A stretch of DNA of 64,000 nt from assembly GCA_964291655.2 (NCBI GenBank), contig OZ219802.1:2016001-2080000 (forward strand), written 5' to 3'. Positions within the stretch are counted from its first letter, which is position 1. Every line of letters starts with the position of its first letter. The position numbers and the translations under genes are program-made. Below the pieces are notes generated by a model. That model was not told where the DNA came from, ran no database searches, and saw only the letters and a program-made list of their open reading frames with translations. Origin of the DNA: Chloroflexota bacterium (GTDB lineage Bacteria > Chloroflexota > UBA11872 > VXOZ01). Below are positions 2,162 to 64,000 of the stretch, piece after piece.

Positions 2162-2280
2162 GGTAGCGCAGGCCCTTCGACAGGCTCAGGACGGGCCCTT
2201 CGGCAGAGCCTGTGCTGATCCTGCCGAAGTGCTCAGGACAGGTTTGCAACCCCGTATCGAGTACGGGGCAGGCTCTGCGC
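2162..2280. repeat. GTAG-type REP carrying four nested 23-24-nt micro-insertions
   Basis: Removing 2173-2242 and 2251-2274 restores GGTAGCGCAGGTTTGCAACCTGCG, seen intact at ~38937 and near-intact at ~2450. Confidence 0.85.
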
Positions 2281-2377
2281 CTTTTGTAGGGTCAAGCCCT
2301 CGCGCACCCGTTTCTATCAGTGGAAGTGTTAGAGCCACGCCTTGTGCTGCTGATGTGGTCGCAGTTTCGCGTGCTCT

Positions 2378-2474
2378 GGCGGGGGACAAGCCCCCGCGCT
2401 ACAATGAGCAGCCCTCTCCTTGTCGCTAGGGTGGCCAACGAACTGCCTTGGTAGCGCAGGTTTGTAACCTGCGT
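2378..2474. repeat. GTAG-tagged REP palindromes; other members at ~875-899, 16281-16305, 28979-29003, 38937-38960, 39462-39486, 49177-49204
   Basis: GCGGGGGACAAGCCCCCGCGCTAC and GTAGCGCAGGTTTGTAACCTGCG hairpins with terminal GTAG/CTAC. Confidence 0.8.
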
Positions 2475-2687
2475 CCCCAGCCCGTCACTTCCGCGCAAAG
2501 CAGGAATCCAATTTCCCTTCTCACGCGGTGCGCGTTGCTATCGGTTGAGCGGGCCGGTGGCGTTGAGCTCGTAGCTAGACTTGGCAGCGTTCTGCGCAGA
2601 GCGCTGCCCTTTGCAACGAATCGTTCGCGCCCAAGTCGCGGAATGGCATTAGAATGAATTAAGGAAGAAAGAGAGGGGAGAAATCCT

Positions 2688-3131
2688 GTGCATGTAGCGG
2701 CACAAAACTACGCCTGCGCGCTCGGTCTTGCGTTGATGGTCTTGCTGCTCGCTGCGTGCGGCGGTGCTGGGGAATTTTCAGACGCTGACACAGCGCCGCA
2801 ACCTGCCCTGCGCGGCGGGGCCGATGCTCCTATAAATAGCAAAGAGGCTGCTCTCGCGGCAGTGCGCACGCATCTCTCTGAGATTATCTCCTGTCGGGAG
2901 GCGCATGGCCGCTTGGAGCAGGACTTCTCACAAGGCTTATTTGAGGCGCGACTCACCTCCGCCTACTCCCTGCGGACGCAGAGTCCGGTGTGGGAGGTAG
3001 CATTCGCAGGTGACCTCCACATCCCGTACGTGATCTGGTTTGTGGAGCAGAGCGACGGCACAGTGCTGGCGAGCATTAGCGCGGCGACGTACTACGAATC
3101 TCCGCTCCATCACATGTGCCGCCGCGACTAA
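2688..3131 (+). CDS. Hypothetical lipoprotein
   Basis: GTG start after a purine-rich RBS; hydrophobic signal with lipobox LAAC. Confidence 0.7.
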   Translation: MHVAAQNYACALGLALMVLLLAACGGAGEFSDADTAPQPALRGGADAPINSKEAALAAVRTHLSEIISCREAHGRLEQDFSQGLFEARLTSAYSLRTQSPVWEVAFAGDLHIPYVIWFVEQSDGTVLASISAATYYESPLHHMCRRD

Positions 3132-3183
3132 GCTGCAATTCAGCCCAAACTGAAATACACCCGCGGCAATGTGGGAGAAGAGG

Positions 3184-3909
3184 TTACTGCGCCGCGTGCC
3201 GCACGGTCGCCAGCGCTTCCGGTAGCGTGAACGCGCCGCGGTAGAGGGATACGCCGACGATTGCCCCTTCGACGCCGAGCGTCGTCAGCCGCGTGAGGTG
3301 GTCGAGACTGGCGACACCGCCGGAGGCGATTACCGGCACGCTGACGGCTTGAGCCAGCGCCCCTGTAGCCTCAAAATTCGGTTGGGAGAGCGTGCCGTCG
3401 CGTTCCACGTCGGTGTAGAGAAACCGGCTCACGCCGCTCGCCACCATCTGGTGCGCCAGATCGAACATGTCAACGCCGCTCTCATGCTGCCAGCCGTGGG
3501 TCATCACCTTGCCGTTGCGGGCATCTAACGCGACGACCACCCGGCCGGGATAGCGCGCGCACGCATCGGCGACCAACTCAGGCTGCTCCAACGCCACCGT
3601 GCCCAACACGACCCGCGCCACGCCTGCCGCGACTGCCTGCTCGATGGCGGCGAGGTCGCGCAGACCGCCGCCCATCTGCACGGGAATGGTCAGCGCCGCG
3701 GCAATCGCCGCCACAACCGGGTGGTTTCGGCTCTTGCCGCGCTCGGTGCCGTCCAGGTCCACCACGTGGAGCAACGCCGCGCCCTGTTCCTGCCAGCCGC
3801 GGGCGGTTTCCACCGGATCGTGGGAGAAGACGGTGCTCTGGTCAAAGTCACCTTTGAACAGGCGCACCACCGCGCCGTCTTTGATGTCTATCGCGGGAAT
3901 TACTTGCAT
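3184..3909 (-). CDS. hisA: ProFAR isomerase (histidine biosynthesis)
   Basis: VIPAIDIKDG..VRL, LHVVDLDG, QMGGGLR, YTDVERDGT motifs. Confidence 0.97.
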   Translation of the reverse strand: MQVIPAIDIKDGAVVRLFKGDFDQSTVFSHDPVETARGWQEQGAALLHVVDLDGTERGKSRNHPVVAAIAAALTIPVQMGGGLRDLAAIEQAVAAGVARVVLGTVALEQPELVADACARYPGRVVVALDARNGKVMTHGWQHESGVDMFDLAHQMVASGVSRFLYTDVERDGTLSQPNFEATGALAQAVSVPVIASGGVASLDHLTRLTTLGVEGAIVGVSLYRGAFTLPEALATVRHAAQ

Positions 3910-4022
3910 GGCGTACTGCGCACGTCCTTCGCGTCACCTCAACGGCGGCGCTCTACCGACAAGATCGCTGGGCATTCACTATCGTGTATGTACCGTATTT
4001 AGCCTACCAACATCCGAATCTT

Positions 4023-4314
4023 GTAACGCAGGGGGCTTGTCCCCCGCCACTTGGCGCACACCATTTGGGTCGCGCAAGTCTTTGGCAAATGCGTTCACCC
4101 AGACAAGCTGACTTCGCATTCCAGTGTCACCCGAACCCAATCCCGGCTCTCGTAGCGCGGGGGCTTGTCCCCCGCCACTTGGCGCACACCATTTGGGTCG
4201 CGCAAGGTCTTGGCGAATGTGTTCACCCAGACATGCTGACTGGGCATTCACCAGTGTCACCCGAACCCAATCCCGGCTCTCGTAATGCGGGGGCTTATCA
4301 TCCGCCTCTTGGCG
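4023..4314. repeat. Tandem array of ~129-130-bp REP-containing units between hisH and hisA
   Basis: Units start at 4023, 4152 and 4282 (partial), each beginning GTA..GC.GGGGGCTT. Confidence 0.9.
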
Positions 4315-4485
4315 TCAAATTCAAGCGCCCCTTTGGAAGAAACATGCCTTGCGCTCGCGGCATTGGTTCATCTTGCGACCCTTCGGCAAAGCCTGTACTT
4401 AGCCTATCGCAGCGTTCTTGCCGCCGTTCGTGTTGCGTTCTTACCCCCGTTCGCGCTGAGCCTGTCGAAGCGCTGTTCCAGAGAT

Positions 4486-5115: not shown

Positions 5116-5311
5116 GGCAGGGTAGTTTCTTTCATAAATGTACGGGTCACCTCTGTATGATATCGCCTCAGCAAGGTAGGCAACAATTTTACGCCGCGCT
5201 TTGTTCGGATTCAAACTACGCTTGCAACGTCCATGTGAGTCTGGTTTCGCGAAGGCCCTGCGCCACAACTGGTAAGAAATTCTCCTCCCAGCAATTGGCG
5301 TTCTTAGATTC

Positions 5312-6139: not shown

Positions 6140-6287
6140 CCCTCAGTCTGTGTCGATGAATTCAGTGTGGTCTATTTTGTGCTGCCACTTATTATTGCGC
6201 GTGTGGCTGGTCTATGGGAGCCGTGGCTGCCACCAAGCAATTCAAGCTCTGAGTCTTAAAGACCCCTCACCCTAACCCTCTCCCCCG

Positions 6288-7931
6288 GAGGGTGTCTCAA
6301 AAATAGATCTACTGGATATATACTGGTGTGAAGAGAAGCAAGGTGAGGTTGTGGGATAGTTTGTAGAGAGGTAGTGACGATGCCGTTGAGACCGTTTAGT
6401 CGTGAACAGGCCTGGCTGTTGCCGCCGACGCTGGACGAACTGATCCCGGACGACCATCCTGTCAGGTTTGCGGCAGCGTTCGTGGACAGCCTCGATGCTG
6501 CGGCCTGGGAGGCGATGGAGATTGACCTGCAAGGCGATCCGCGTGGCGCCGGGGCCTACCATCCGCGCGCGCTGCTGGGCGTATGGGTCTACGGCTTCAT
6601 GACCGGCGTGCGCTCGAGCCGCAAGCTGGAGGCAGCCTGCCGGGATCAGGTACCGTACCTGTGGCTGGTGGGGATGCAGCAGCCGGACCACAACACGCTG
6701 TGGCGCTTCTACAAGGCGCACCGCGACCGGATGCGGACGCTGCTCAAGCGCACGGTGCGCACGGCGGTGCGAGCCGGCCTGGTGGAGTTGGCAATCCAGG
6801 CGGTGGACGGCACCAGGATCGCGGCCAACGCCGGGACGCGGCATACCCACGACGCGCAGGGGCTGCAGCGGCTGTTGTCCCGCACCGAGCAAGCGATCGC
6901 GGACCTGGAGGCGCAGAACGCCACGGGGGGCGACGCGCCGCCAGCGACTTTGCCGCAGGAACTTGCCGATGCCCAGGCCCTGCGGCGGCGGGTGGACGAC
7001 GCGCTCGCCCGCGTCGCGGCTGAGGACGGGCCGCGCTACACGAACCTGACTGATGCGGACGCGGCCCTGCTCAAGACTGGCATGGGTGGCTTCATCACCG
7101 GCTACAACGCCCAGGCGCTGGTCTCCCCTCTTGCGTCCCCGGACGAGGGCGCAGGGGGGAGGTTGATCACAGCCGTGGACGTGAGCGCCAGTGCCGACGA
7201 CCATCCCCACCTGGCGCCGCTGATCGAGGCGGCGCAGGAGAACATCGACGCCGCGCGGGACGTGGTGACCGTTGCGGACGCCGGCTACCATTCGGGGGCC
7301 AACCTCGCCACGTGCCACGCCGGCGGCCACACGGTATTGATGCCCACGACCCACGAGCGCAGACGCCGCAACCCCTACCATAAAGACCACTTCACCTACC
7401 GTCCAGAGACCGACACCTACCTGTGTCCCCAGCAAAAGGTGCTCACCTACACGCACCGCTTGACCCACAGCAACGGCTACCGGGTCAAGCGGTACCAAGC
7501 CAACGGCCGGGACTGCAGAACCTGTCCGGCCTTCGGCGTCTGCACCTCCTCCCAGAGGGGCCGCTCCATAAAGATCAGCGCCTACGAGCCAATACTGCAA
7601 CGGCACAGGCAGTTGATGGCCACCGCGCCTGCCAAGCAGGTGTACCGCCGCCGGAGTACCATCGTCGAGCCGGTCTTTGGCCTGCTCAAGGAGTGGCACA
7701 GTGCCAGGCGCTTCCTGCTCAGAGGCCGCAGCCACGTGACGTCCGAATGGCACCTGCTGGCCACCGCGTTCAATCTCAAGAGCCTCCACGCCCTGTGGCG
7801 GTCTGGGTGTAGTCCAGCGTCGCCCCGGGGACGAGTCTCTCACTGGCACCGTCTTGTTCATACCACCCGCCATCTGTCTGTCCTTCTCACCCCATTCACC
7901 GTGCCCCGCACCAAAATATTGAGACAGCCTC
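6288..7931 (+). mobile_element. IS1182-family element, copy 1 (1644 bp)
   Basis: TIRs GAGGGTGTCTCAA / TTGAGACAGCCTC; 4-bp TSD CCCG (6284-6287, 7932-7935) inside CCCTCTCC-N4-GGAGAGGG. Confidence 0.95.
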
Positions 7932-7966
7932 CCCGGGAGAGGGAACCGGTCAGTCTGTGTCGGTGA
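6374..7966 (+). CDS. IS1182-family DDE transposase
   Basis: LLPPTLDELIPDDHPVR, YHPRALL, SSRKLE, PDHNTL, AVDGTRI, ADAGY, YRRRSTIVEPVFG motifs. Confidence 0.95.
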   Translation: MTMPLRPFSREQAWLLPPTLDELIPDDHPVRFAAAFVDSLDAAAWEAMEIDLQGDPRGAGAYHPRALLGVWVYGFMTGVRSSRKLEAACRDQVPYLWLVGMQQPDHNTLWRFYKAHRDRMRTLLKRTVRTAVRAGLVELAIQAVDGTRIAANAGTRHTHDAQGLQRLLSRTEQAIADLEAQNATGGDAPPATLPQELADAQALRRRVDDALARVAAEDGPRYTNLTDADAALLKTGMGGFITGYNAQALVSPLASPDEGAGGRLITAVDVSASADDHPHLAPLIEAAQENIDAARDVVTVADAGYHSGANLATCHAGGHTVLMPTTHERRRRNPYHKDHFTYRPETDTYLCPQQKVLTYTHRLTHSNGYRVKRYQANGRDCRTCPAFGVCTSSQRGRSIKISAYEPILQRHRQLMATAPAKQVYRRRSTIVEPVFGLLKEWHSARRFLLRGRSHVTSEWHLLATAFNLKSLHALWRSGCSPASPRGRVSHWHRLVHTTRHLSVLLTPFTVPRTKILRQPPREREPVSLCR

Positions 7967-8146
7967 ATTCAGTGTGGTTGCCTAACCATTGCCCCTACTT
8001 GTCGCGCCTGTGGCTGGTCTTCGAAAGCCGCAACCGCCTCTTGGCAGTGTACTCCCTTTCAAAAAGAATCCCCCTTACCCTAGCCCTCTCCCTCGGGAGA
8101 CCTTTGCGCAACTCCGGCCGGAGGCGCAAGAATTACCCCCTCTCCT

Positions 8147-9411
8147 TGTATAGACCGGGTACATGGGTTACACATGTTCGGGCACATAGGTTACACCTTA
8201 AGGCATGGAGATTCTTACAGATGGAGGAGCGCCATGCCTTGGAAGGAGAGTACGGTTGTGTCTGAACGCAAGGAGTTCATTGCACTGGCACTGATGGAAG
8301 GGGCCAACATCAGCGAGCTGTGTCGCCGTCTGGAGATCAGTCGCAAGACGGCGTACAAGACGCTGGAGCGGTATGCGAAAGCTGGCGAAGACGGTTTGCA
8401 CGACCGGTCGCGGCGGCCGCACACGTGTCCGCACCGCACGCGCCCGGCGCTGGAGGAGCGCATCATCGCCTTGCGCCTGGCGCATCCGAAGAAAGGCGCA
8501 CACGTGCTGCGCCGGATGCTGCAGGACCAGGGGGTCACCGACGTGCCGGCCAAGAGCACCATCAATGCCATTCTCAAACGCCATGGGCTCATCGATCCAG
8601 CCCAGAGCGCCAAGCACACGCCCCATGTGCGCTTCGAACGACCCCAGCCCAACGAGCTGTGGCAGATGGACTTCAAGGGACATTTCGTCATGCAGCAGAA
8701 CCGCTGTCATCCTCTCACCCTCCTAGACGATCACTCCCGCTTCAACCTCGGGTTACAGGCCTGTGCCAACGAGCGGGGAGAGACGGTCCAAGACCGCCTC
8801 ACCGCTGTCTTTCGCCGCTACGGCTTGCCCCAGGCCATGCTCATGGACAACGGCTCTCCCTGGGGTAACGACAGTGCCCAGCCCTTCACGCCCCTCACCG
8901 TCTGGCTCATGCAGCTGGGCATCAACGTCCTGCACAGCCGACCCTACCATCCCCAGACACTCGGCAAGCTGGAACGCTTCCACCGCTCCCTCAAGAGCGA
9001 ACTGCTGGCAGGGACCACCTTTACCGACCTGGACCATTGCCAGCGCGCCTTTGACACCTGGCGCCACTTCTACAACTTGGAACGCCCACACCATGCCCTC
9101 GATCTCGACACTCCCATTACCAGATACACGCCTAGTCCTCGCCCTTTCCCAGAGACCTTGCCTGCCCTCGCCTACGCTCCCGACGACCGCGTACGCAGCG
9201 TCGATGTCTCCGGCCGCATCTCCTTCCAAGGCAGACGGCTCCGTGTGGGCAGGGCCTTCACGCACAAGCAAGTCGCCCTGCGACCCACCCGAACGGACGG
9301 TGTCTGGGACGTGTACTTCTCGATCCAAAGAGTAAAAACCATAGACCTCAGAGCACAAAATGTGTAACCTATCTACCCGAACATCTGTTACCTATGTCCC
9401 CGGTCTGTACA
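8147..9411 (+). mobile_element. IS481-family element (1265 bp)
   Basis: TGTATAGACCGGG...CCGGTCTGTACA ends, two repeated subterminal sites per end, 5-bp TSD CTCCT (8142-8146, 9412-9416). Confidence 0.95.
8234..9367 (+). CDS. IS481-family transposase (HTH + rve integrase core)
   Basis: MPWKES start after GGAGG; DRSRRP, WQMDFKG, MDNG, GKLERFHRSLK, YNLERPH. Confidence 0.96.
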   Translation: MPWKESTVVSERKEFIALALMEGANISELCRRLEISRKTAYKTLERYAKAGEDGLHDRSRRPHTCPHRTRPALEERIIALRLAHPKKGAHVLRRMLQDQGVTDVPAKSTINAILKRHGLIDPAQSAKHTPHVRFERPQPNELWQMDFKGHFVMQQNRCHPLTLLDDHSRFNLGLQACANERGETVQDRLTAVFRRYGLPQAMLMDNGSPWGNDSAQPFTPLTVWLMQLGINVLHSRPYHPQTLGKLERFHRSLKSELLAGTTFTDLDHCQRAFDTWRHFYNLERPHHALDLDTPITRYTPSPRPFPETLPALAYAPDDRVRSVDVSGRISFQGRRLRVGRAFTHKQVALRPTRTDGVWDVYFSIQRVKTIDLRAQNV

Positions 9412-9737
9412 CTCCTTGGGGAGAGGGTCGGGGTGAGGGGTCTTATCTGCTTTGCATATCGTAAAACATGTACAGTCAATCATATTAGAGCCAATCCGGT
9501 CAGGAAGTTGCTCGTGCTCAGAGCAGTTTCACCCTCACCCCCGTATCACGTACGGGGCAGGCTCTAGCCCTCTCCCGTCAAGGGAGAGGGGACAATCTCC
9601 CTTCCACATGGGTTTTGCAAAGGTCTCCTCAGGGAGAGGGAATCGGAGGAGAAACGTTCACTTACACCCTTGTCCTCTCTTCCTGGAGACTGAGACGAGG
9701 AACTGCAAATTCCGACCTGCACCGGCAGTCCATAGTG

Positions 9738-13635: not shown

Positions 13636-14227
13636 ACGTGCTTCCTTGCCGCACGAAATCCGCGCTCTTGCCACCAATATACCCTTGCTCAACATCCGCC
13701 CGAAGCACGAGAGGTCTCCGCTCTCCTTGGGGAGAGAGGGCCGCCGCGAAAGGATCCTGGCTGGTACGGTTCATCATCCCTACGGAGACTCTGCGGCCTG
13801 TGTGAAACAGGCAAGACTACGGAAACTCTCCCTCGCCTCCCGTTTCGCGTGCGGGGCGGGCAGCTAGTGCTCACCCGCCGGAGCGCCTTGCATGACCCTT
13901 GCCCAGGCGAGATAGCCCCCTCTCTCCCTCCTGCTGGGCGAGAGTCGGGCTGGGGGGATTTAGAACGGCTTCACGGCTACTACCTACCCCCCCCTCCTGG
14001 ATTCCGGCTTGCGCCGGAATGACGGATGTTTTCAAAGTCCTCCTCGACAGGAGAGGGTTAGAGCCTGGTCCGTACTCGATCCAGCGTTTCGACACGAAAC
14101 GGGGGTGAGGGTGAATCTCCTAAAATCTCTCCGAATGCAAATCGATTCTGTTCTCATATGACTTTACACGTCACAAATCAAAGGGACATTGTAGCTGCGA
14201 GTCCCCCTCACCCCAGCCCTCTCCCCC

Positions 14228-14515
14228 TGTACAGACCGGGGACATAGGTAACAGTTGTTCGGGGACATGGGTTACACATTTTACTGATTGACACCTACGA
14301 GAGCATTGGGTTGGTCCGGGTTTGATAAGAGACTGGCGACACAGTGCACTCACTTTCCGCCTGTCAGCTTGTGCCAGAGAAACAAACAGTGTGCATAAGG
14401 ATATTGAGTGGATCTAACTTTCAAGGCAAGGACATCGCATACTACGAAAACCCCCTCGTTCTATGGTGTTACCTATGAGCCCGAACAACTGTTACCCATG
14501 TCCCCGGTCTATACA
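14228..14515. mobile_element. Non-autonomous IS481-type MITE (family B), 288 bp
   Basis: TGTACAGACCGGG...CCGGTCTATACA ends matching the IS481 at 8147; TSD CCCCC; inside a CCCTCTCC..GGAGAGGG palindrome. Confidence 0.9.
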
Positions 14516-14731
14516 CCCCCAAGGAGAGGGAGGTATTCTCGCCTGCAAGTGAGTTTCGCAATGGCCTCCGCTGGGGGAGGAGACTTTCGCGCCTCGGCAA
14601 AGTTCTTGCACGAGTCTCCTGCGGGAGAGGGGGCCTTTAATCCAACAGAAGTCTGTTTATTTCCGCCGCGTCGTGCTGATGGCTTGGCCCCCGCAGGAGG
14701 ATGCGTTCTCAGGTAGTGCCTCCACCGAGAA

Positions 14732-23713: not shown

Positions 23714-23929
23714 CCCTCTCCCGGGAGACGTATGCGCAACCAAGGCCGCCGGGCAAGAGTTCCCCTCTCTCCGGGAAACCCTTGCACAACCAGGCCTGCT
23801 CGCAAAGAGACCCCCTCTCCCTGGGGAGACCTTTGCATAACTAATCTGAATGCGAGAATATCACCCTCTCCCCGTGGAGACATTTGCGAAACTTCGGCTA
23901 GCGGCGCAAGAATTGCTCCCTCTCCTTGG
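23714..23929. repeat. ~50-bp-period array of stacked family A MITE ends and palindrome half-sites
   Basis: CCCTCTCCC-N-GGAGAC.TTTGC..AAC-like units at 23714, 23763, 23813 and 23864; fifth half-site at 23918 holds the IS1182. Confidence 0.8.
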
Positions 23930-25487
23930 GAGGCTGTCTCAATATTTTGGTGCGGGGCACGGTGAATGGGGTGAGAAGGACAGACAGATGGCGGGTGGTA
24001 TGAACAAGACGGTGCCAGTGAGAGACTCGTCCCCGGGGCGACGCTGGACTACACCCAGACCGCCACAGGGCGTGGAGGCTCTTGAGATTGAACGCGGTGG
24101 CCAGCAGGTGCCATTCGGACGTCACGTGGCTGCGGCCTCTGAGCAGGAAGCGCCTGGCACTGTGCCACTCCTTGAGCAGGCCAAAGACCGGCTCGACGAT
24201 GGTACTCCGGCGGCGGTACACCTGCTTGGCAGGCGCGGTGGCCATCAACTGCCTGTGCCGTTGCAGTATTGGCTCGTAGGCGCTGATCTTTATGGAGCGG
24301 CCCCTCTGGGAGGAGGTGCAGACGCCGAAGGCCGGACAGGTTCTGCAGTCCCGGCCGTTGGCTTGGTACCGCTTGACCCGGTAGCCGTTGCTGTGGGTCA
24401 AGCGGTGCGTGTAGGTGAGCACCTTTTGCTGGGGACACAGGTAGGTGTCGGTCTCTGGACGGTAGGTGAAGTGGTCTTTATGGTAGGGGTTGCGGCGTCT
24501 GCGCTCGTGGGTCGTGGGCATCAATACCGTGTGGCCGCCGGCGTGGCACGTGGCGAGGTTGGCCCCCGAATGGTAGCCGGCGTCCGCAACGGTCACCACG
24601 TCCCGCGCGGCGTCGATGTTCTCCTGCGCCGCCTCGATCAGCGGCGCCAGGTGGGGATGGTCGTCGGCACTGGCGCTCACGTCCACGGCTGTGATCAACC
24701 TCCCCCCTGCGCCCTCGTCCGGGGACGCAAGAGGGGAGACCAGCGCCTGGGCGTTGTAGCCGGTGATGAAGCCACCCATGCCAGTCTTGAGCAGGGCCGC
24801 GTCCGCATCAGTCAGGTTCGTGTAGCGCGGCCCGTCCTCAGCCGCGACGCGGGCGAGCGCGTCGTCCACCCGCCGCCGCAGGGCCTGGGCATCGGCAAGT
24901 TCCTGCGGCAAAGTCGCTGGCGGCGCGTCGCCCCCCGTGGCGTTCTGCGCCTCCAGGTCCGCGATCGCTTGCTCGGTGCGGGACAACAGCCGCTGCAGCC
25001 CCTGCGCGTCGTGGGTATGCCGCGTCCCGGCGTTGGCCGCGATCCTGGTGCCGTCCACCGCCTGGATTGCCAACTCCACCAGGCCGGCTCGCACCGCCGT
25101 GCGCACCGTGCGCTTGAGCAGCGTCCGCATCCGGTCGCGGTGCGCCTTGTAGAAGCGCCACAGCGTGTTGTGGTCCGGCTGCTGCATCCCCACCAGCCAC
25201 AGGTACGGTACCTGATCCCGGCAGGCTGCCTCCAGCTTGCGGCTCGAGCGCACGCCGGTCATGAAGCCGTAGACCCATACGCCCAGCAGCGCGCGCGGAT
25301 GGTAGGCCCCGGCGCCACGCGGATCGCCTTGCAGGTCAATCTCCATCGCCTCCCAGGCCGCAGCATCGAGGCTGTCCACGAACGCTGCCGCAAACCTGAC
25401 AGGATGGTCGTCCGGGATCAGTTCGTCCAGCGTCGGCGGCAACAGCCAGGCCTGTTCACGACTAAACGGTCTCAACGGCATCGTCAC
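23898..25487 (-). CDS. IS1182-family transposase
   Basis: Same protein as copy 1 up to KILRQP; tail encoded by flanking DNA. Confidence 0.95.
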   Translation of the reverse strand: MTMPLRPFSREQAWLLPPTLDELIPDDHPVRFAAAFVDSLDAAAWEAMEIDLQGDPRGAGAYHPRALLGVWVYGFMTGVRSSRKLEAACRDQVPYLWLVGMQQPDHNTLWRFYKAHRDRMRTLLKRTVRTAVRAGLVELAIQAVDGTRIAANAGTRHTHDAQGLQRLLSRTEQAIADLEAQNATGGDAPPATLPQELADAQALRRRVDDALARVAAEDGPRYTNLTDADAALLKTGMGGFITGYNAQALVSPLASPDEGAGGRLITAVDVSASADDHPHLAPLIEAAQENIDAARDVVTVADAGYHSGANLATCHAGGHTVLMPTTHERRRRNPYHKDHFTYRPETDTYLCPQQKVLTYTHRLTHSNGYRVKRYQANGRDCRTCPAFGVCTSSQRGRSIKISAYEPILQRHRQLMATAPAKQVYRRRSTIVEPVFGLLKEWHSARRFLLRGRSHVTSEWHLLATAFNLKSLHALWRSGCSPASPRGRVSHWHRLVHTTRHLSVLLTPFTVPRTKILRQPPKEREQFLRR

Positions 25488-25573
25488 TACCTCTCTACAA
25501 ACTATCCCACCACCTCACCTTGCTTCTCTTCACACCAGTATATATCCAGTAGATCTATTTTTGAGACACCCTC
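23930..25573 (-). mobile_element. IS1182-family element, copy 2 (1644 bp)
   Basis: Same TIRs; TSD TTGG (23926-23929, 25574-25577) within CCCTCTCC-N4-GGAGAGGG. Confidence 0.95.
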
Positions 25574-25768
25574 TTGGGGAGAGGGCTGGGGTGAGGGGAA
25601 TTCTTCACAATACCAACCCATTTGCGCGCAGTCGACGGGTATCGCAAGAGTCTCTAATTGGGGAATGGGCCGCAACGCGTTCCGGATTGGCCGCACTCAA
25701 GTCACCCTTGTGCTTGGTGCTGAATGGGGAGTCATGCTCTGGCGCTACATTCGTATGCAATACGTGTC

Positions 25769-26836: not shown

Positions 26837-27039
26837 CCCTCTCCCTCGACGGGAGAGGGCTAGAGCCTGCCCCGTACTCGATTCATAGTATCGACACGAT
26901 ACGGGGACGAGGGGTGAATCCTCCGAGATCCGGTACTCACACTATAGGTTGTGCACCGCTACGTGCAGGTCTTGCACGAGGTGGCAACGTGGTAAGCAAG
27001 AACTCCCCTCACCCCAACCCTCTCCCCAAGGAGAGGGGG
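26837..27039. repeat. Palindrome doublet (REPIN-like) with a 42-nt micro-insertion
   Basis: Two CCCTCTCC..GGAGAGGG hairpins with inward-facing GGGTGAGGG/CCCTCACCC tails; same layout at 9412-9590, 14041-14227 and 49636-49786. Confidence 0.75.
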
Positions 27040-37347: not shown

Positions 37348-38547
37348 CTACGCTGTTGGCGAAGATCGTACTGCCATCCGGGTGCGGTACTTACCGCCCT
37401 GCCGCATGAGCCACATGTAAAGGATGGTCAGGGCGAACGGCGCCAACGGCATCAACATGAGCGCGTTGAACGCGGCGGGCAGTCCGAAGCCGTCCGCGAA
37501 GAGCCCCACGAACGGCGTGCCCATGCCGCTGATGCCCCAAGCAAATCCGACCATCATGCCTGATGCCATTGCTCTTTGATTTGGCAGGAGTTCATGACTC
37601 ATCACCACGGTAACGGCGAACGTGGAGACGGTAAATGCGCCAATGAATACCAGCATCAAGGGCAGCCAAAATCCATCGGTATGCAAGAAGACGTAAACGA
37701 ACAGCGGTACGGGTAGGAGCGACCAGAGGAGCAGGCCCTCTTTGCTCGTGCGGTCGGCCACGTAGCCGCCAATAAGCGTGCCTATCGCACCGCTAAAGAG
37801 CAGGAAGGGCAGGAGCCCCGCCGCCGCCTCGGGTACCGTCATACCGAGTTCTGCGACGGCATAGAGTGGAATGAACGTGCCCAGGCTTACCCAGAAGAAG
37901 GAGCGGAGAATGACGATAACCAGCAAGAGGATGAAGGGTGTCAGAATCGGTCGAATGTCGAGAAGAGCGGCTTTCAGGTCCGGCGGCGCTAACTCGGTGC
38001 CGGTCTCAATTCGCGGCAGCAGCCGCCAGAGCACCAGCGCCATCAGAACACCCGGCAGCAACATGAGCATGAGTCCGCGCTGCGCCTGCCAGGCAAAGAG
38101 CACGGCGACGACTACCGGTCCCGCGGCGACGCCAATGTTGCCGCCAACAGAGAATATCGAGGTGCCGGTGCTCTGCCGGTCGCCGCTGTAGTGGCCGGCC
38201 GCCTTGTAGCCCTCGGGATGGTAAGCGGCGATGCCCAAGCCGCCGATGGCGACCGCGATAAGTACGAGCCCATACACTGGGGCCTGCGTGGCAACGGTGA
38301 CGCCAACAGCGGCGACGAGCGGTGAGAGGGGGAGTACCAGCTTCCCATTGATGCGATCGCTCACGTAGCCGAGAACCGGCTGGACTGCGCTGGCGGAAAA
38401 GCTGTGCGCTGCCGAGACGAGCGACACGGCAAAATAGGAGAGACCGAACGTGCTCACAAAAATAGGGAGCATGGCGGGCAGCATTCCGCCATAGATATCT
38501 GCAACCACGTGCCCTAGGCTCAGCGTCAGGAGCATGGGCGTATTCAT
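37348..38547 (-). CDS. MFS transporter (Fsr-like)
   Basis: Multiple TM segments; QPVLGYVSDR, YHPEG, SIFSVGGN. Confidence 0.9.
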   Translation of the reverse strand: MNTPMLLTLSLGHVVADIYGGMLPAMLPIFVSTFGLSYFAVSLVSAAHSFSASAVQPVLGYVSDRINGKLVLPLSPLVAAVGVTVATQAPVYGLVLIAVAIGGLGIAAYHPEGYKAAGHYSGDRQSTGTSIFSVGGNIGVAAGPVVVAVLFAWQAQRGLMLMLLPGVLMALVLWRLLPRIETGTELAPPDLKAALLDIRPILTPFILLLVIVILRSFFWVSLGTFIPLYAVAELGMTVPEAAAGLLPFLLFSGAIGTLIGGYVADRTSKEGLLLWSLLPVPLFVYVFLHTDGFWLPLMLVFIGAFTVSTFAVTVVMSHELLPNQRAMASGMMVGFAWGISGMGTPFVGLFADGFGLPAAFNALMLMPLAPFALTILYMWLMRQGGKYRTRMAVRSSPTA

Positions 38548-38669
38548 GCGACGCTTGGTTTTCAACGTGGCACGCGCTTCTTCAGGCCAAAATCTTCGAT
38601 TGCGGTCTCTTCCTCGTGTTGAAGTAACGCGATAGCTGCGGCAATTGCCATGAAAATAAGCGATTCATT

Positions 38670-38801
38670 CCGTTCGCCCCCGCATCGTGTCGATGCGCTG
38701 TATCGTGCGATGCGCGGTATCGAGTACGGGGCAGGCTCTGAGCCTGCCTGTCCTGAGTACTTCGACAAGCTCAGTACAGGCTTTGCCGAAGGGTTGAAGG
38801 G
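38670..38801. repeat. CCGTTCGC-CTGAGCCTG-GAAG repeat carrying multiple nested micro-insertions
   Basis: Removing 38679-38737 and 38747-38793 leaves CCGTTCGCCCTGAGCCTGTTGAAGGG, matching intact copies at ~4447, ~51005 and ~51109. Confidence 0.85.
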
Positions 38802-51212: not shown

Positions 51213-52829
51213 CTACCTATGGAGACCTTTGCATAACCCCACTTTCAAGCAGGGGCACTCCCTCTCCTGGGGAGGCTGTCTCAATATTTTGGTGCGGGGC
51301 ACGGTGAATGGGGTGAGAAGGACAGACAGATGGCGGGTGGTATGAACAAGACGGTGCCAGTGAGAGACTCGTCCCCGGGGCGACGCTGGACTACACCCAG
51401 ACCGCCACAGGGCGTGGAGGCTCTTGAGATTGAACGCGGTGGCCAGCAGGTGCCATTCGGACGTCACGTGGCTGCGGCCTCTGAGCAGGAAGCGCCTGGC
51501 ACTGTGCCACTCCTTGAGCAGGCCAAAGACCGGCTCGACGATGGTACTCCGGCGGCGGTACACCTGCTTGGCAGGCGCGGTGGCCATCAACTGCCTGTGC
51601 CGTTGCAGTATTGGCTCGTAGGCGCTGATCTTTATGGAGCGGCCCCTCTGGGAGGAGGTGCAGACGCCGAAGGCCGGACAGGTTCTGCAGTCCCGGCCGT
51701 TGGCTTGGTACCGCTTGACCCGGTAGCCGTTGCTGTGGGTCAAGCGGTGCGTGTAGGTGAGCACCTTTTGCTGGGGACACAGGTAGGTGTCGGTCTCTGG
51801 ACGGTAGGTGAAGTGGTCTTTATGGTAGGGGTTGCGGCGTCTGCGCTCGTGGGTCGTGGGCATCAATACCGTGTGGCCGCCGGCGTGGCACGTGGCGAGG
51901 TTGGCCCCCGAATGGTAGCCGGCGTCCGCAACGGTCACCACGTCCCGCGCGGCGTCGATGTTCTCCTGCGCCGCCTCGATCAGCGGCGCCAGGTGGGGAT
52001 GGTCGTCGGCACTGGCGCTCACGTCCACGGCTGTGATCAACCTCCCCCCTGCGCCCTCGTCCGGGGACGCAAGAGGGGAGACCAGCGCCTGGGCGTTGTA
52101 GCCGGTGATGAAGCCACCCATGCCAGTCTTGAGCAGGGCCGCGTCCGCATCAGTCAGGTTCGTGTAGCGCGGCCCGTCCTCAGCCGCGACGCGGGCGAGC
52201 GCGTCGTCCACCCGCCGCCGCAGGGCCTGGGCATCGGCAAGTTCCTGCGGCAAAGTCGCTGGCGGCGCGTCGCCCCCCGTGGCGTTCTGCGCCTCCAGGT
52301 CCGCGATCGCTTGCTCGGTGCGGGACAACAGCCGCTGCAGCCCCTGCGCGTCGTGGGTATGCCGCGTCCCGGCGTTGGCCGCGATCCTGGTGCCGTCCAC
52401 CGCCTGGATTGCCAACTCCACCAGGCCGGCTCGCACCGCCGTGCGCACCGTGCGCTTGAGCAGCGTCCGCATCCGGTCGCGGTGCGCCTTGTAGAAGCGC
52501 CACAGCGTGTTGTGGTCCGGCTGCTGCATCCCCACCAGCCACAGGTACGGTACCTGATCCCGGCAGGCTGCCTCCAGCTTGCGGCTCGAGCGCACGCCGG
52601 TCATGAAGCCGTAGACCCATACGCCCAGCAGCGCGCGCGGATGGTAGGCCCCGGCGCCACGCGGATCGCCTTGCAGGTCAATCTCCATCGCCTCCCAGGC
52701 CGCAGCATCGAGGCTGTCCACGAACGCTGCCGCAAACCTGACAGGATGGTCGTCCGGGATCAGTTCGTCCAGCGTCGGCGGCAACAGCCAGGCCTGTTCA
52801 CGACTAAACGGTCTCAACGGCATCGTCAC
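51213..52829 (-). CDS. IS1182-family transposase
   Basis: Same protein as copies 1 and 2 up to KILRQP. Confidence 0.95.
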   Translation of the reverse strand: MTMPLRPFSREQAWLLPPTLDELIPDDHPVRFAAAFVDSLDAAAWEAMEIDLQGDPRGAGAYHPRALLGVWVYGFMTGVRSSRKLEAACRDQVPYLWLVGMQQPDHNTLWRFYKAHRDRMRTLLKRTVRTAVRAGLVELAIQAVDGTRIAANAGTRHTHDAQGLQRLLSRTEQAIADLEAQNATGGDAPPATLPQELADAQALRRRVDDALARVAAEDGPRYTNLTDADAALLKTGMGGFITGYNAQALVSPLASPDEGAGGRLITAVDVSASADDHPHLAPLIEAAQENIDAARDVVTVADAGYHSGANLATCHAGGHTVLMPTTHERRRRNPYHKDHFTYRPETDTYLCPQQKVLTYTHRLTHSNGYRVKRYQANGRDCRTCPAFGVCTSSQRGRSIKISAYEPILQRHRQLMATAPAKQVYRRRSTIVEPVFGLLKEWHSARRFLLRGRSHVTSEWHLLATAFNLKSLHALWRSGCSPASPRGRVSHWHRLVHTTRHLSVLLTPFTVPRTKILRQPPQERECPCLKVGLCKGLHR

Positions 52830-52915
52830 TACCTCTCTACAAACTATCCCACCACCTCACCTTGCTTCTCTTCACACCAGTATATATCCAGTAGATCTAT
52901 TTTTGAGACACCCTC
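51272..52915 (-). mobile_element. IS1182-family element, copy 3 (1644 bp), with inverted instead of direct flanks
   Basis: Same TIRs; flanks TGGG / CCCA within 52-bp inverted repeats (51220-51271, 52916-52967). Confidence 0.95.
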
Positions 52916-53182
52916 CCCAGGAGAGGGAGTGCTCCTGCTTGAAAGTGGGGTTATGCAAAGGTCTCCACCGGCCTTACGTTGCCGGAGTTGCCCAGGGACA
53001 GCCGCCGGATGCGGCTGTCGATTCTCGTTCTGGCTTGCCTATCCCTTAGCCGTCTGAACCAGTGGGCGTAGTCCTCGGTTTGGCGAATCTCGACCACCAT
53101 CATATTGTAGGCTACAGGATACTAGCGACACAAGGTGCCTTCTGCAGAGTCATTGGCCACTACTCTGATCTGACAAGAGCAC

Positions 53183-54697: not shown

Positions 54698-54883
54698 TCA
54701 CTCACTTGATGGGAGTGGGTTGGAGCCTGCCCCGTACTTGATACGGGGGTGAGGGTGATTCCAGCCGAAGTCAGCCCGCTGCCGTCTGCATGACGAGTTT
54801 CCCGGGGAGTTCCGCGCAGAGAAGCACGAAACTCGCCGCCGGCGCGAATACAAGACATTGAATCAGTTGGTGTAGGAGCAGCT

Positions 54884-55618: not shown

Positions 55619-55878
55619 AGGAAAGAGAAACCGGCACAGTTCCGGTTCCCTCTCCTGGGGGGAGAGGGTTAGAGCCTGCCCCGTTCTCGAAACGGGGGTG
55701 AGGGAGGCTACTCACCTATCGGCCTGAGTTGAACAAACGACTCTCGTTAGTGAGAAGGCGAGAGCCCGCCCCATGTGCGATACGTGGGTGATATGTGAAA
55801 CCAGCAAATTGGCAGCGCGGCATAACGTATAATTGCCGTTACAGGTCTTGCTAACGCATAAGAAGGAAACCGTAGGCT

Positions 55879-56800: not shown

Positions 56801-58366
56801 ATGGCATCAGCATCCCGTCGATCACTTCTTCAAGCACGAATTCTGCTCCGGTTGGAGCAGGGACCAGTTAAGACTGTCTCCGAGCTTGCCATAGCAGTGG
56901 GTGCACAGCGGCCTTCTGTTAGCCGTTCCCTCAAATCGCTTCGGAATGACAATCTAGTTGAACGAAAGCGCAACGGCTGGAATCTGACTCCGATGGGAGT
57001 AGATGAGGCAGAGCGGTGTAATGAGGAACTTTCCAAGTCCGTCCGAGAATTCCAGCGTGCATATAAGTCAATTGCTTTAGGCGGAGAATTAACGAAGGTC
57101 AATAGGGCCATTGCCGATTCACTAGGGAACGGCATTGCATCTAATCTATTCAAGAAACTTAAAGTAGCAACTGCCTCTGCTAATGCATTGAAAGCTAGTC
57201 AGGCCCTCACCGATTCACTAGGGAATGACATTGCATCTAACCTATTCAAGAGTCTTGAGGAAGCAACTGCCTCGGTTAAGGCCTTAGAAGCCAACAGTGC
57301 CCTTTGCGAGTTTCTCGAGATCGCCAAAGCCCCCGCCTTCTCCAAGATCCTGGAAGATGCATCTGCCACAGTTGAAATCATGAAATCCAGTACGGCCTTC
57401 AGCGAAACCCTTGGTAGGGGCGTTCTGAACAATCCCCAAGTCGACATTCTTCCTATGAGTCTTACGGGTGCCCAAGACGCGCTGTCCAATTTCCTCTCTC
57501 AGCCGAATTCGCCTGGGCTCAGTGAAGTGCTCTCCCAATCTCTAGCACCGTTGGCCGAGACTCAACTTAGGATTTCGGGCTTGTTTACCAAGTCAATGGC
57601 TCTTCCAGACACAGGATTAGTCTTGTCTCAGAGCAACGGCTTAATCGCTAGAGCTCTAGAAGATGTTGAAACCATATATTCAGCTCCCAAAATTCGTTCT
57701 CAGGGGTTTGACAGCGTTTTCTATCCCGAAGTGCTCCGTGACATTCGACAGATTGGCGCATCCATACGCTCGCTGCTCCAAGAAACTACCGAGATCGCTG
57801 CAGCAACCCACAATCCACTTGACATGCAACAAACGTGGTCAAGAATGCTCATACCTAGCTCAACTGTTGCCAACTATACACGCTCATTGCGCTCCGAACT
57901 TGAGGTCACACCTGACATTGCTATTGAGGTATTGCCGCCCCTGTCCCACCGGGAGGACCAAAGTGAACCGCTCAATCTTCTGTTAATCGAGTTAAACCCG
58001 GATCTCGCGGACAAGTGGCGGGGAAGTTGGGAGGCACTAGAAGGGTCTAACCCAGATGGATTAAGCCAAGCAGCGTTCTCGTACCGAGAGCTTATTCGGA
58101 TGGTGTTGGATGAACTTGTCCCCGAAGTTGAACTAGACCGAACCGAGCAAGGGTCGAAGCGAAAGCAGCAGGTTCGTCAATTTTTGCAGGGAAGTGAAGG
58201 GGACTTTGCTTACGTGATGATAGTAGGGCTATCCAAGCTCTATGACTTTCTTAGCAAGCCTGCACATACTAACTATCGGAACAAGCTCGCGGTACAAGCC
58301 GCCCTTATGGCAGGAGATGGACTTCTGTTGCTCCTGCTGTCTGGCAGAAGAGACTACGATGCTTAG
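56801..58366 (+). CDS. Winged-HTH protein with internal 32-aa repeats and a C-terminal domain resembling the predicted pPIWI-associating nuclease
   Basis: TVSELA...RPSVSRSLKSL HTH; 96-bp tandem repeat (57114, 57210); GSWEAL..NPD...SYRELI..VL..L.P; visibly lower GC. Confidence 0.7.
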   Translation: MASASRRSLLQARILLRLEQGPVKTVSELAIAVGAQRPSVSRSLKSLRNDNLVERKRNGWNLTPMGVDEAERCNEELSKSVREFQRAYKSIALGGELTKVNRAIADSLGNGIASNLFKKLKVATASANALKASQALTDSLGNDIASNLFKSLEEATASVKALEANSALCEFLEIAKAPAFSKILEDASATVEIMKSSTAFSETLGRGVLNNPQVDILPMSLTGAQDALSNFLSQPNSPGLSEVLSQSLAPLAETQLRISGLFTKSMALPDTGLVLSQSNGLIARALEDVETIYSAPKIRSQGFDSVFYPEVLRDIRQIGASIRSLLQETTEIAAATHNPLDMQQTWSRMLIPSSTVANYTRSLRSELEVTPDIAIEVLPPLSHREDQSEPLNLLLIELNPDLADKWRGSWEALEGSNPDGLSQAAFSYRELIRMVLDELVPEVELDRTEQGSKRKQQVRQFLQGSEGDFAYVMIVGLSKLYDFLSKPAHTNYRNKLAVQAALMAGDGLLLLLLSGRRDYDA

Positions 58367-58491
58367 TGGCAGTCCTCGACGCCTGTTCGACCAATGAATT
58401 TTCGAAAGGAATAGTCAATCGAATTGGGAGTTCAGGAGCCGCCTGACCACAGGCACATGGTTTGGCTTCAAGTCCGGGTACAAGTGCGCAG

Positions 58492-59897: not shown

Positions 59898-60295
59898 GAG
59901 CTGTCTCTCCCTGTTTCTGGATTGCGTCAGCGTGGTAACGGCTCCTCCTGTCGAGATATTGTGGTCAGATTATACCTGAACTAGAGGGTATCAATAGGTA
60001 AAGCAGATTCCCGCTTCGGCTCAAAATGAGGCGGACGGATGAAGGGAGCAGACTACCCCCGTCAAGACGTGTATTGGCGAACTCTACGTGCTAGAGCTAG
60101 ACTTCGGCGCCCACTATTGCAGTAGTCGCTCTGCCGGACAGAAGCCAGCCCTGGCGTGCAGGTACCTGCTTGAACTGAGATTCGTCTGCCCTTCAGCGTC
60201 CGGGCAACACCTGCGATTCAGTAGCCGGCTGACCTAGATTGACTGTGATGCGAGTGTATGGCAAGGGAGCTACGCGCTCACGGGTAGCTGCCTAA

Positions 60296-62344: not shown

Positions 62345-62456
62345 GTATGCGCCTCTTGTCCAAGTGCGCTCGCCAAGAGTAATCTCGGCCTATGCCTTCG
62401 AAGGTCGCCAAGCGTCAGTCACAGGCTTCCTACCGGAGCGGAAGCTATCGGACCAA

Positions 62457-62852
62457 TCAGCATGCGCATGCAAAGTCGGTCTCACCGGCTCCTGCCGTGC
62501 CGTGGGTAGCGTAGCCGTCACGTATCCACCAATCGAGCCCGCCGATCAGTTCGCGCACCTGGAAGCCAAGCTCCAGGAGTTTCAGCGCCGTCTTGGTGGA
62601 AGCATTGCAGCCGATCCCGTCACAGTAGCAGACATAGGTGTGTGACTTGTCGAGCGCCGCGGTTGATTCGGAGCTGATTTGCCGGTGAGGAAGGCTGATT
62701 GCGCCGGGGATATGCTCGGTGGCATAGGCGCTGGCAGCGCGGCCGTCCACAACAACGATGCGATCGTCTAATCCCATAGCCTCGTAAAGGTCCGCCGAGT
62801 CTATTTCGTAGGTGAGTTTGGCCTGGTAATATGCGATCTGACTGTGTCTCAT
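62457..62852 (-). CDS. Rhodanese-like domain protein
   Basis: VDGR, HIPGA, YCDGIGCN, LIGGLDWW. Confidence 0.92.
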   Translation of the reverse strand: MRHSQIAYYQAKLTYEIDSADLYEAMGLDDRIVVVDGRAASAYATEHIPGAISLPHRQISSESTAALDKSHTYVCYCDGIGCNASTKTALKLLELGFQVRELIGGLDWWIRDGYATHGTAGAGETDFACAC

Positions 62853-62882
62853 CTTGTTCTTCCCGGGCGATGCGGCGCTTAG

Positions 62883-63455
62883 CTACTCTCCGCTTTGCTG
62901 CTTGCTCTCCGCCTGGCATAGCGGGCAAGCGCCCGGTTCGCTCAACTGGGTGCCACACTGCTCGCAGCGGTGAAGACCCCCCTCCTCCGTTGCTTCCAAG
63001 CGGGCGACGGCTTGTTGGCGCACGGCAGGGTCTGCGATGAGCTCGATGGCTTGGCGCAGGCGGCGTTGGCGGTCGGTGTCATCGTCCGTGGCGGCGGGCG
63101 GGCGCGGCGTTTTTCTATTCGGCTGGGGAAGTGAACCCGGCGTAGCGCGGGGGGCAGGCCGTTGGCCGCGCACGCGGAATTCGAGTTTGCTCACGAGCGG
63201 TCGGCCCATTATCTTGTTCAGATCGCGCATAAGCTGGGGCGTGCGCATGTGCAGTTCGTGGATGGCGGCCGAAGAAGGGGCTTCCACGACCAGGACGCCG
63301 CGCAGGAAACGGACGGGACGCGCAGCACGGGCATGAATGGGTAATTCCGCCGCCACAGCGCGCCAGGCGGCGAACGCCGCGGCGCGCTTGAGCTGCTCGG
63401 AGATGCCAAGCTCTTCGATGGTGCCGGGCAGGATGTCCTTCAGCGATTTAAACAC
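62883..63455 (-). CDS. DUF721/DciA family protein with C-terminal Zn ribbon
   Basis: GTG start after GGAAGGA; W...P..F..GVLVV...S....EL pattern; CEQC..CPLC. Confidence 0.8.
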   Translation of the reverse strand: MFKSLKDILPGTIEELGISEQLKRAAAFAAWRAVAAELPIHARAARPVRFLRGVLVVEAPSSAAIHELHMRTPQLMRDLNKIMGRPLVSKLEFRVRGQRPAPRATPGSLPQPNRKTPRPPAATDDDTDRQRRLRQAIELIADPAVRQQAVARLEATEEGGLHRCEQCGTQLSEPGACPLCQAESKQQSGE

Positions 63456-63539
63456 ACGCAGTCCTTCCTCCCACATAAGCCTAGCATAGTCTCGAGTGAG
63501 CTTAGACTAGCTTTCCCATTGGCACTAGCGGTGCCATCT

Positions 63540-63828
63540 CTAGATGAGACCTCTGCACAACCTTTGCCGCAGCGTGGAAGTCCTTTCACCGTCCTCGCCG
63601 TAGCGATGCGGCAGCTCATGGCCCGTGGGCGGCGAAATGCCAAAACATCGAGACAACGTGCGTACGTTCGCGTCCGGCAGCCGCGCCAGAGCGAGGAATT
63701 CACGCTTCGCATCCGCAGCAGTCCTCTCCTTCCCAGGCATGAGGCGCTTCCTTCATTACTCAAGAAGAGTGCCCTAATGTGTAAAGTATGTCTGCGCACA
63801 CCCGTTAAGTATCTCCGAGGTCTATTCA
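63540..63828 (-). pseudogene. Decayed IS481-family left end and transposase N-terminus
   Basis: MPGKERTAADAKREFLALA aligns with MPWKESTVVSERKEFIALA; end TGAATAGACC next to a GGGGTGAGGGG palindrome tail. Confidence 0.75.
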
Positions 63829-64000
63829 AGAGGACCGGGGTGAGGGGGGAATCGTCCGCGGATTCCGCCCAATTCCCTTGTGGCCGTCAGAGCTACGAAC
63901 GTGTCCCCTCTGGATTCTGCGTCGGCACAAATGGGACGAGTATTGACTATTCCGTCCGTACTTCGACACTTCGGCTATCCTGCACTGAGCTAGCTGAAGT

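Follow-up and report, generated by a model that had tools for sequence, protein, structure and literature searches.

The genome of a Chloroflexota bacterium (G000; 3.47 Mb, 59% G+C, two contigs) carries very small hairpin units, muA, muB and muC, that are inserted at fixed lengths of 23-24 nt into unrelated hairpin repeats and into one another, and single modules have been gained and lost between this species and its sister species. The units were studied in a window of 64,000 nucleotides (contig C2, positions 2016001-2080000; window positions below are counted from its first letter), whose intergenic DNA is crowded with short hairpin repeats, as well as across the genome and in its relatives. 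A PBP1-type protein, whose best named relative is 90% identical in amino acids, puts the genome among Chloroflexota MAGs. According to our analysis, they are probably mini-insertions that are mobilised in trans and targeted to DNA structure, in the manner of the small dispersed repeats (SDRs) of cyanobacteria. The existence of such insertions had been proposed in a preliminary description of the window that was made from the letters alone.

MuA has a length of 24 nt and consists of AGCCTG followed by a hairpin with a stem of 6-7 bp and a loop of 5 nt, and its information content shows sharp edges at the unit ends. At no more than 3 mismatches, the genome contains 101 copies of muA, 79 of muB and 66 of muC. 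The preliminary description had treated these as three related units with a common (AG)CCTG 5' end. The common start was borne out (AGCCTG in muA, (AG)CCTG in muB and muC) and muA is discrete, but muB and muC are two subfamilies of one unit, here called muB/C, that occurs in 23- and 24-nt forms: their alignment is in register, and what separates them is mainly a pair of linked positions (C..G versus R..T). By length, muA copies form three classes: 65 have 25 nt, 16 have 43 nt and 2 have 60-62 nt. In the longer classes, the loop of the basic form contains an 18-nt unit, once or twice. This loop unit is itself discrete. The muA stem occurs in compensated and in G.T-wobble variants, and 96 of the 101 copies are intergenic according to crude gene calls (78% coding).

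The precision of the insertions is evident from two genome-wide comparisons. In a deletion grid, each copy was excised at all boundary shifts from -6 to +6 and the new 20-mer junction was sought elsewhere in the genome. For muA, the 24-nt diagonal restored known junctions at 10 to 30 of the 101 sites at shifts of -3 to 0, every cell outside this run restored 3 sites at most, and those off the diagonal 2 at most. Removal of 23 nt restored 25 of the 79 muB sites and 18 of the 66 muC sites, with a further 6/66 for muC at 24 nt. An unbiased indel scan looked for pairs of left and right 11-mers that adjoin each other at one site but are split at a second site more than 1 kb distant. The resulting spectrum of indels between dispersed repeats peaks at 21, 22, 23 and 24 nt (23, 33, 39 and 41 events) and drops to 4 events each at 25 nt and at 26 nt, and its 23-24-nt class consists mostly of muA and muB/C. 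Grid and spectrum establish the units as discrete, in line with the earlier proposal of precise 23-24-nt insertions whose removal restores the host repeat.

The repeats that receive the units are hairpins as well and are present in hundreds of copies across the genome. Host 1 is a G-rich hairpin followed by YTAG-GGTGAGGG (250 copies genome-wide at up to 2 mismatches). Host 2 is a dRS3-like hairpin, GTCATTCCGGC-GAAA-GCCGGAATCC, bounded by GTCATTCC..GGAATCC (137 copies at up to 3 mismatches, with 48 exact matches to the core pattern). Host 3, CCGTTCG(Y)SC-TGAGCYTGTCGAAG-..GAACGG, forms a CCGTTCG..CGAACGG hairpin whose core CTGAGCYTGYCGAAG occurs 184 times; its loop is also entered by a further discrete unit, the 14-nt palindrome GGCTGCGCGAAGCC. 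The fourth host, REPb, is a GTAG-type repetitive extragenic palindrome (REP) that reads GGTAGCGCAGG-TTTGCAAC-CTGCGC (137 copies at up to 4 mismatches) and is the second such REP of the genome next to REPa, the GTAG-tagged GTAGCGCGGGGGCTTGTCCCCC (192 copies at up to 2 mismatches).

The units enter these hairpins at their stem-loop junctions. In REPb (GCGCAGG|TTTGCAAC|CTGCGC) muB occupies the first junction and muA the second. In host 2 the insertion point is GGCGAAA|GCCGGAA, a junction that is wholly unambiguous, in host 3 it is ..GGCTCA(G)|GGGCGAACGG, and the loop unit enters muA itself at CTCGA|TACGGGG. Units are also nested, with muC inside muB inside a host repeat and the loop unit inside muA, and the branched hairpins into which the resulting composites fold have z values from -3.2 to -4.3. 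Host 1 contains 37 of the muA copies, host 3 16, REPb 13 and host 2 9, and the remaining 26, many of them expanded, lie in other contexts. Empty copies are plentiful in each host (9 filled versus 91 empty for host 2, by clustering), and the master variants GTACTCGATACG and GTACTTGATACG were found in all four. At least four unrelated hosts thus hold muA, one more than had been recognised from the window, and across them the flanks have only 1-2 nt in common. No target duplication was found at muA or muB/C insertions, as the preliminary description had noted. Its rule that muA always lies at RG|G holds for many copies but is not universal: the flank is AA|G in the dRS3-like host 2, and other flanks occur in copies from metagenomes.

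Within the window, the muA consensus matches five times at up to 3 mismatches, compared to 0.00 matches expected. Four of these matches, at 2251-2274 (-), 9540-9563 (-), 54724-54747 (+) and 55673-55696 (+), had been listed before, and the one at 38714-38737 (-) is additional. The copy at 9540 lies in host 1, after the hairpin CCCTCTCCC-N5-GGGAGAGGG plus CTAG and ahead of GGTGAGGG. Host 1 also contains the copies at 54724 and 55673, of which the latter has a compensated stem (CCCCGTT/AACGGGG), in line with the covariation that had been described. The expanded muA forms are likewise real. They are found at 14062-14104 (+), where a degenerate muA with one 18-nt loop unit lies within a 526-nt composite repeat, at 26864-26906 (+; one loop unit, 43-nt class) and at 38678-38737 (-; two loop units, 60-nt class), the last of these, earlier placed at 38679, in a CCGTTCGCC|CTGAGCCTG host-3 repeat and including the additional consensus match.

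Four modules are combined in the composite REPb at 2162-2280 (+), which sits downstream of a gene at 965-2071, has the arms GGTAGCGCAGG and CTGCGC and the loop TTTGCAAC, and folds into a branched structure (z -3.5). A solo 23-nt muB at 2173-2195 (-) marks the junction of 5' arm and loop. A second muB at 2196-2242 (-) is split into 2196-2206 and 2231-2242 by a 24-nt muC at 2207-2230 (+), nested in inverted orientation, and muA at 2251-2274 follows at the junction of loop and 3' arm. The same nesting recurs in the composite at 38670-38795, where muB at 38747-38793 (+) is divided into 38747-38758 and 38783-38793 by a 24-nt muC at 38759-38782 (-). All muB positions and both nested muC copies are as originally reported. 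Two other copies assigned to muC, at 4390-4413 (+) and 63977-64000, are degenerate and fail to match the consensus at up to 3 mismatches; for the former, a match at 4392-4414 appears at up to 4.

Comparison of orthologous sites shows these modules present in one species and missing in another. The sister species G008 is ~94-95% identical to G000 and syntenic, and an alignment of 384 kb between the two contains 39 clean indels of 5 nt or more. A 24-nt muA at C2:1120252 of G000 is absent both from G008 and from the more distant outgroup G013, which makes it a polarised gain. The 24-nt muC at window position 38758-38781 is a further clean indel, its site being empty in G008 between flanks that are identical at 45/50 positions. 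At 2171, G008 has three tandem muB and is 46 nt longer than G000 (flanks 50/50 identical), at 38691 the genomes differ by a 17-nt loop unit, and one host-3 site that is empty in G000 holds muC and a doubly expanded muA in G008. Over the whole alignment, 7 muA copies are common to both genomes, each genome has 1 of its own, and 2 per genome are unclear. Of muB/C, 9 copies are common to both, 3 copies of G008 are absent from G000, 1 copy of G000, within a larger indel, is absent from G008, and 3 in each genome are partial or unclear, the G000 set including the muC at 38758.

Two loci show how the composites differ in steps between species. At 38670-38795, G003 has a bare host-3 repeat, G008 carries muA with one loop unit plus muB without muC, and G000 has in addition a second loop unit and a muC within muB, so that the number of modules across the three species is zero, two and four. 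At the REPb locus (2162-2280), module content varies across five species. G003 has muB(muC) only, with the composite in inverted orientation and GCAAC|CTGCGC unbroken where muA would sit, G012 and G014 have muB(muC) with an expanded muA, and G000 and G008 have a basal muA with one and three solo muB copies, respectively. Short-read contigs from sponge metagenomes, that is, from public runs that contain the window region, break at the repeats (ends at 26871, 28999, 38655, 38937 and 39187). A contig of run X4 over 37377-38751 aligns with 17 gapped letters, which is compatible with the 17-nt loop-unit difference but is a single contig. Empty orthologous sites, for which the preliminary description had proposed a search in relatives, therefore exist and include one polarised gain, and together with the fixed length and the occurrence of one master variant in four hosts they support its view of the units as discrete mobile modules.

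MuA was found in 16/16 other genomes of the genus, in 2/14 other genomes of the class sample and in 28/401 sampled Chloroflexota. In the last sample it is distributed in an all-or-none manner by genus, with 10/10 genomes of genus g1, 9/9 of g8 (up to 78 copies), 3/3 of g11, 1/1 of g6, 2/16 of g10, 0/5 of g4 and two genomes elsewhere, and muB/C is co-distributed with it. In the other family, muA lies mostly within host-2-type hairpins, the stems of which covary (TTCCGGC, TTCCCGC, CCCCGGC) around a constant muA. Among the matches listed, at least 119 JGI metagenome contigs of 36-67% G+C contain exact muA, mostly within GTCATTCC..GGAATCCAG hairpins in either orientation or between a G-rich hairpin and GGTGRGG. 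It also occurs in two viral contigs of IMG/VR, once in a host-1-like context, and viruses are thus a possible vehicle between lineages. Protein look-ups for two of the metagenome contigs gave weak leads to Actinomycetota/Chloroflexota for one and to Thermodesulfobacteriota/Methylomirabilota for the other. Rfam gave no match (E <=1) for the muA position of 8 metagenome loci, and a literature search for the muA string turned up no paper that contains it.

Since the units lack by far the length to encode any product, they must be joined in or copied in by a trans-acting activity. We infer a mover, dedicated or co-opted, that acts at the junctions. It would recognise hairpin junctions plus the unit itself, and each module would be copied to the sites where stem and loop meet in unrelated hairpin repeats, at its exact length and with no duplication of the target. 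Modules would enter one another in the same way and so give rise to branched, nested hairpin mosaics. Such an activity may be a housekeeping or unrecognised structure-specific nuclease/ligase, or a template switch of a polymerase.

Several observations weigh against trans-mobilised, structure-targeted insertion. No enzyme for the insertion was found, and the central mechanistic step is one that we infer. Among the host-1 copies of muA, 15/37 carry the variant GTACGTGATACG together with more than 100 nt of common flanks and were therefore amplified as part of a larger repeat; a single lineage per host, which the preliminary description had named as evidence against independent insertion, is thus seen in part of host 1, but the master variants are spread over four hosts. 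The muB/C family resembles its host-3 target, both containing CTGAGCYTGTCGAAG, and some of the apparent insertions can consequently be decomposed otherwise (15 + 8 nt, near-tandem duplication). In the indel spectrum, 23-24 nt is not the sole favoured length, as there are peaks at 5, 7, 14, 15, 42 and 48-53 nt. Only one event is polarised by an outgroup, and the other differences could be precise losses. Slippage of tandem units is suggested by two of the differences, the tandem muB copies at 2171 and the 17 nt of the loop. Finally, a cellular function under selection, and not selfish activity, could be what keeps muA letter-perfect in distant genomes.

Some of these points would be accommodated by a passive mosaic, in which selected motifs, for example protein-binding sites or structural modules of RNA or DNA, are shuffled from one dispersed hairpin repeat to another through replication slippage, short-patch gene conversion and, at hairpins, ectopic template switching, with no need for a dedicated insertion activity. 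We consider this, the main rival, unlikely, though by no means implausible. The hundreds of host repeat copies are ample donors, the way in which muB and the loop unit vary in tandem copy number resembles slippage, and among further clean indels between G000 and G008 there are simple tandem duplications, of 19 and 25 nt. Identity of muA letter for letter across families and across metagenomes from 36 to 67% G+C would be expected of a selected motif, and the stems occur in compensated and wobble variants. However, conversion cannot make the first insertion in at least four unrelated hosts whose flanks are alike over 1-2 nt, homology available for it at junctions amounts to 9-17 nt only, and off-length junctions are nearly absent. 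Orientation bias is absent with respect to neighbouring genes (34/35 and 31/39, with the same crude gene calls) and to replication, which argues against a strand-specific RNA role.

Transfer of the hairpin units as single strands by a Y1 HUH enzyme (RAYT or IS200/IS605 TnpA) encoded elsewhere, the type of mover that the preliminary description had pointed to, appears improbable. The units contain hairpins and insert precisely without target duplication, GTAG-type REPs are abundant, and the genome encodes one RAYT above the curated cut-off (NF047646, 82 bits; C2:2523436-2523753) besides two degraded Y1 fragments, with RAYT-like hits in 16/16 other genomes of the genus. This RAYT is, however, flanked by a different REP of its own, GCGGGCG-N3-CGCCCGC, and mu units are not found there. 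No RAYT-like hit was obtained in the contigs of G023, in spite of 17 muA copies (up to 2 mismatches). Among five muA-rich genomes of g8 and g11, Y1_Tnp gave no hit in four, namely G023, G310 (78 muA), G148 (73 muA) and G279, whose muA copies number 11-78 (up to 1 mismatch), and a weak hit only in the fifth, G373. Replication-strand bias is lacking for muA (52/49) and muB/C (44/57), unlike for REPa in the same genome (128/64). MuA has neither a GTAG nor a CGTC tag, and there is no fixed target tetranucleotide 5' of the insertions, the flanks being variable also in metagenome copies. The different REP at the RAYT, the Y1-less genomes rich in muA and the missing strand bias leave the HUH/Y1 reading unsupported. 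The proposed mover would be neither the RAYT/IS200-type Y1 enzyme of this genome nor one of its DDE transposases. The abundant insertion sequence (IS) elements, of the IS1182 family (25 loci) and the IS481 family (19 loci plus variants), encode DDE enzymes that make target duplications and have ends unrelated to the mu units.

Less credible still is an RNA-templated route, by which small transcripts of the units would be reverse-transcribed into nicks at hairpin junctions. There are two reverse transcriptase genes in the genome, one of them with a strong RVT_1 match at C1:354043, and G.T stem variants, which are compatible with G.U pairs, appear commoner than A.C variants in a rough hand count of non-independent copies. 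The other reverse transcriptase is, however, a DRT4 defence enzyme, the units show no orientation bias relative to transcription, and their junctions carry no poly-A tracts or other marks of retro-insertion. As a separate observation, the DRT4-type gene (561 bits; C2:979914-981434) adjoins a degraded Y1 fragment and a PIN-domain gene. That the units are excision footprints of a longer element whose two ends together form the unit, as the preliminary description had also considered, would fit their fixed length but hardly anything else and may be set aside, since the search for long elements with matching termini found none in the genome that is repeated and bounded by unit halves (AGCCTGCCCCGTA... 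and ...TACGGGG for muA), muA 5' seeds close after 25, 43 or ~60 nt only (rare longer spacings being unrelated unique sequence), and the long repeats in a genome self-comparison are IS1182-like and IS481-like elements and rRNA only.

The mu units have their closest known counterparts in the SDRs of Nostocaceae, besides the dRS3-containing mosaics of Neisseria and the bacterial interspersed mosaic elements (BIMEs) of E. coli, and the kind itself is mechanistically unsolved. SDR1-8, reportedly described by Elhai and colleagues in 2008, are said to be dispersed, intergenic, non-coding repeats of 21-27 nt. They reportedly differ by presence and absence at orthologous sites and are inserted in other repeats and in each other. 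To our knowledge, no mover of SDRs has been named, and we know of no enzyme, intermediate or target rule reported for the spread of 20-30-nt bacterial repeats since the SDRs were described. The mu units are alike in size (24 and 23/24 nt), in copy number (66-101 each), in precise presence or absence at orthologous sites, and in nesting within repeats and each other. They differ in their targets, which are the stem-loop junctions of hairpins, in the conservation of muA across families and metagenomes, and in the phylum of their host, and they are therefore at most an analogue of the SDRs, with which they were compared by description rather than by consensus sequence and to which no sign of a sequence relationship was noticed. 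In papers that cite the SDR work, the term 'SDR' is used, the repeats 'might be mobile', and tandem copies and an insertion of SDR5 at the highly iterated palindrome HIP1 are mentioned; one of these papers gives no SDRs for HIP1-rich cyanobacteria outside Nostocaceae.

Host 2 recalls another mosaic system. The outer sequence of its hairpin (GTCATTCC-stem-GAAA-stem-GGAATCC) is shared with a Neisseria repeat, GTCATTCCCGCGAAAGCGGGAATC, which occurs in the sequence of a gonococcal construct and is presumably dRS3 of the neisserial intergenic mosaic elements (NIMEs). NIME units of 50-150 bp lie between dRS3 copies and likewise form mosaic arrays of short repeat units between such hairpins, whereas muA is a 24-nt module within the loop of the host-2 hairpin. 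In Neisseria, dRS3 is targeted by IS110/Piv-type recombinases, which have no counterpart here, IS110 giving no hits in the genome. A host-2-like hairpin is contained in one Neisseria paper, and nothing was found in the literature on REPs in sponge Chloroflexi.

Intergenic hairpin mosaics with short defined linkers are also characteristic of REPs and BIMEs and of REP doublets associated with RAYT (REPINs). The genome has GTAG-tagged REPs, one of them with a 2:1 strand bias, and a RAYT gene. The mu units, however, lack the GTAG/CGTC tag, which belongs to the host REPs, are not doublets, do not flank the RAYT, occur in Y1-less genomes and show no strand bias. An assignment to REPs or REPINs was therefore rejected by tag, by RAYT flanking and by RAYT co-occurrence. 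They were also rejected as minimal IS200/IS605 elements, the palindrome-associated transposable elements (PATEs), given their variable flanks, the 52/49 orientation and the lack of TnpB hits in the genome. Miniature inverted-repeat transposable elements (MITEs) are similarly non-autonomous, intergenic and high in copy number. They measure at least ~50-100 bp and have terminal inverted repeats and target duplications, and the mu units, with no terminal inverted repeats, no target duplication and no relation to the IS ends, were not accepted as MITEs. Genuine MITEs of 103-104 nt with GGAGACCTTTGC ends are present in the genome and are quite unlike the mu units. Mobile G+C clusters, or double-hairpin elements, of fungal mitochondria are very small and insert into each other and into spacers. 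They are ~30-80 nt long, make short target duplications and reside in organelle genomes, and we know of no mover for them. The mu units are alike as tiny, mutually inserting hairpins and differ in size, genome type and target duplication.

The genus thus adds a second, unrelated lineage with SDR-like behaviour. Its units follow a clear target rule in that they enter hairpin repeats where stem and loop meet, and there are stepwise orthologous series with one polarised gain, besides negative evidence on RAYT/Y1. With the wide distribution of muA added, comparative genomics and biochemistry can address the question of how such repeats spread, and the genus, in which at least ten of the 17 genomes consist of a single contig, offers many pairs of filled and empty sites in which to seek the activity. 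Modules of this kind remodel intergenic hairpins and could affect transcript ends and genome stability. Tentatively, we posit that muA and its kin might be the smallest self-propagating DNA modules outside cyanobacteria, inserted by a structure-specific activity outside the known transposase classes, with a 24-nt unit spreading between bacterial families and probably between phyla and phages. If this doubtful but conceivable extension were true, it would imply a mechanism of DNA insertion beyond any known transposase class.

Further observations concern other repeats of the window and the genome. At gathering scores, an Rfam scan of the window gave 3 tRNAs only, and no CRISPR-like arrays were found in the genome. 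The sole long repeat free of open reading frames (ORFs) is the 16S rRNA gene, present in two copies (C1:298805-300647 and C2:231161-233003). The 526-nt composite of hairpin repeats at window position 14033-14558, which includes the degenerate expanded muA, is missing from the orthologous site of G008 (flanks 45/50). Two tandem repeats were noted in the window, one of 128 nt at 4031-4314, which is intergenic and contains REPa, and one of 96 nt at 57106-57297 within an ORF. Homopolymer G tracts of ~20-30 nt abut the REPa hairpin (..GGGGGGCTTGTCCCCCGC) at C2:~1950504, at ~2180426 and elsewhere, and their length differs between paralogous copies in the same genome.

Among the IS elements, a 1.69-kb member of the IS1182 family is present in three window copies (6258-7944, 23917-25598 and 51259-52927) and at ~25 genome loci that are 99-100% identical, which suggests a very recent burst. 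An element of the IS481 family lies at 8084-9452 of the window, with the ends TGTACAGAC../..GGTCTATACA, and is found at ~19 genome loci, accompanied by variant subfamilies. IS481-family elements are located inside the host-1 repeat CCCTCACCCTAGCCCTCTCCC, with an apparent duplication of AGCCCT, a few bases from the insertion point of muA, and this repeat is therefore a shared hot spot.

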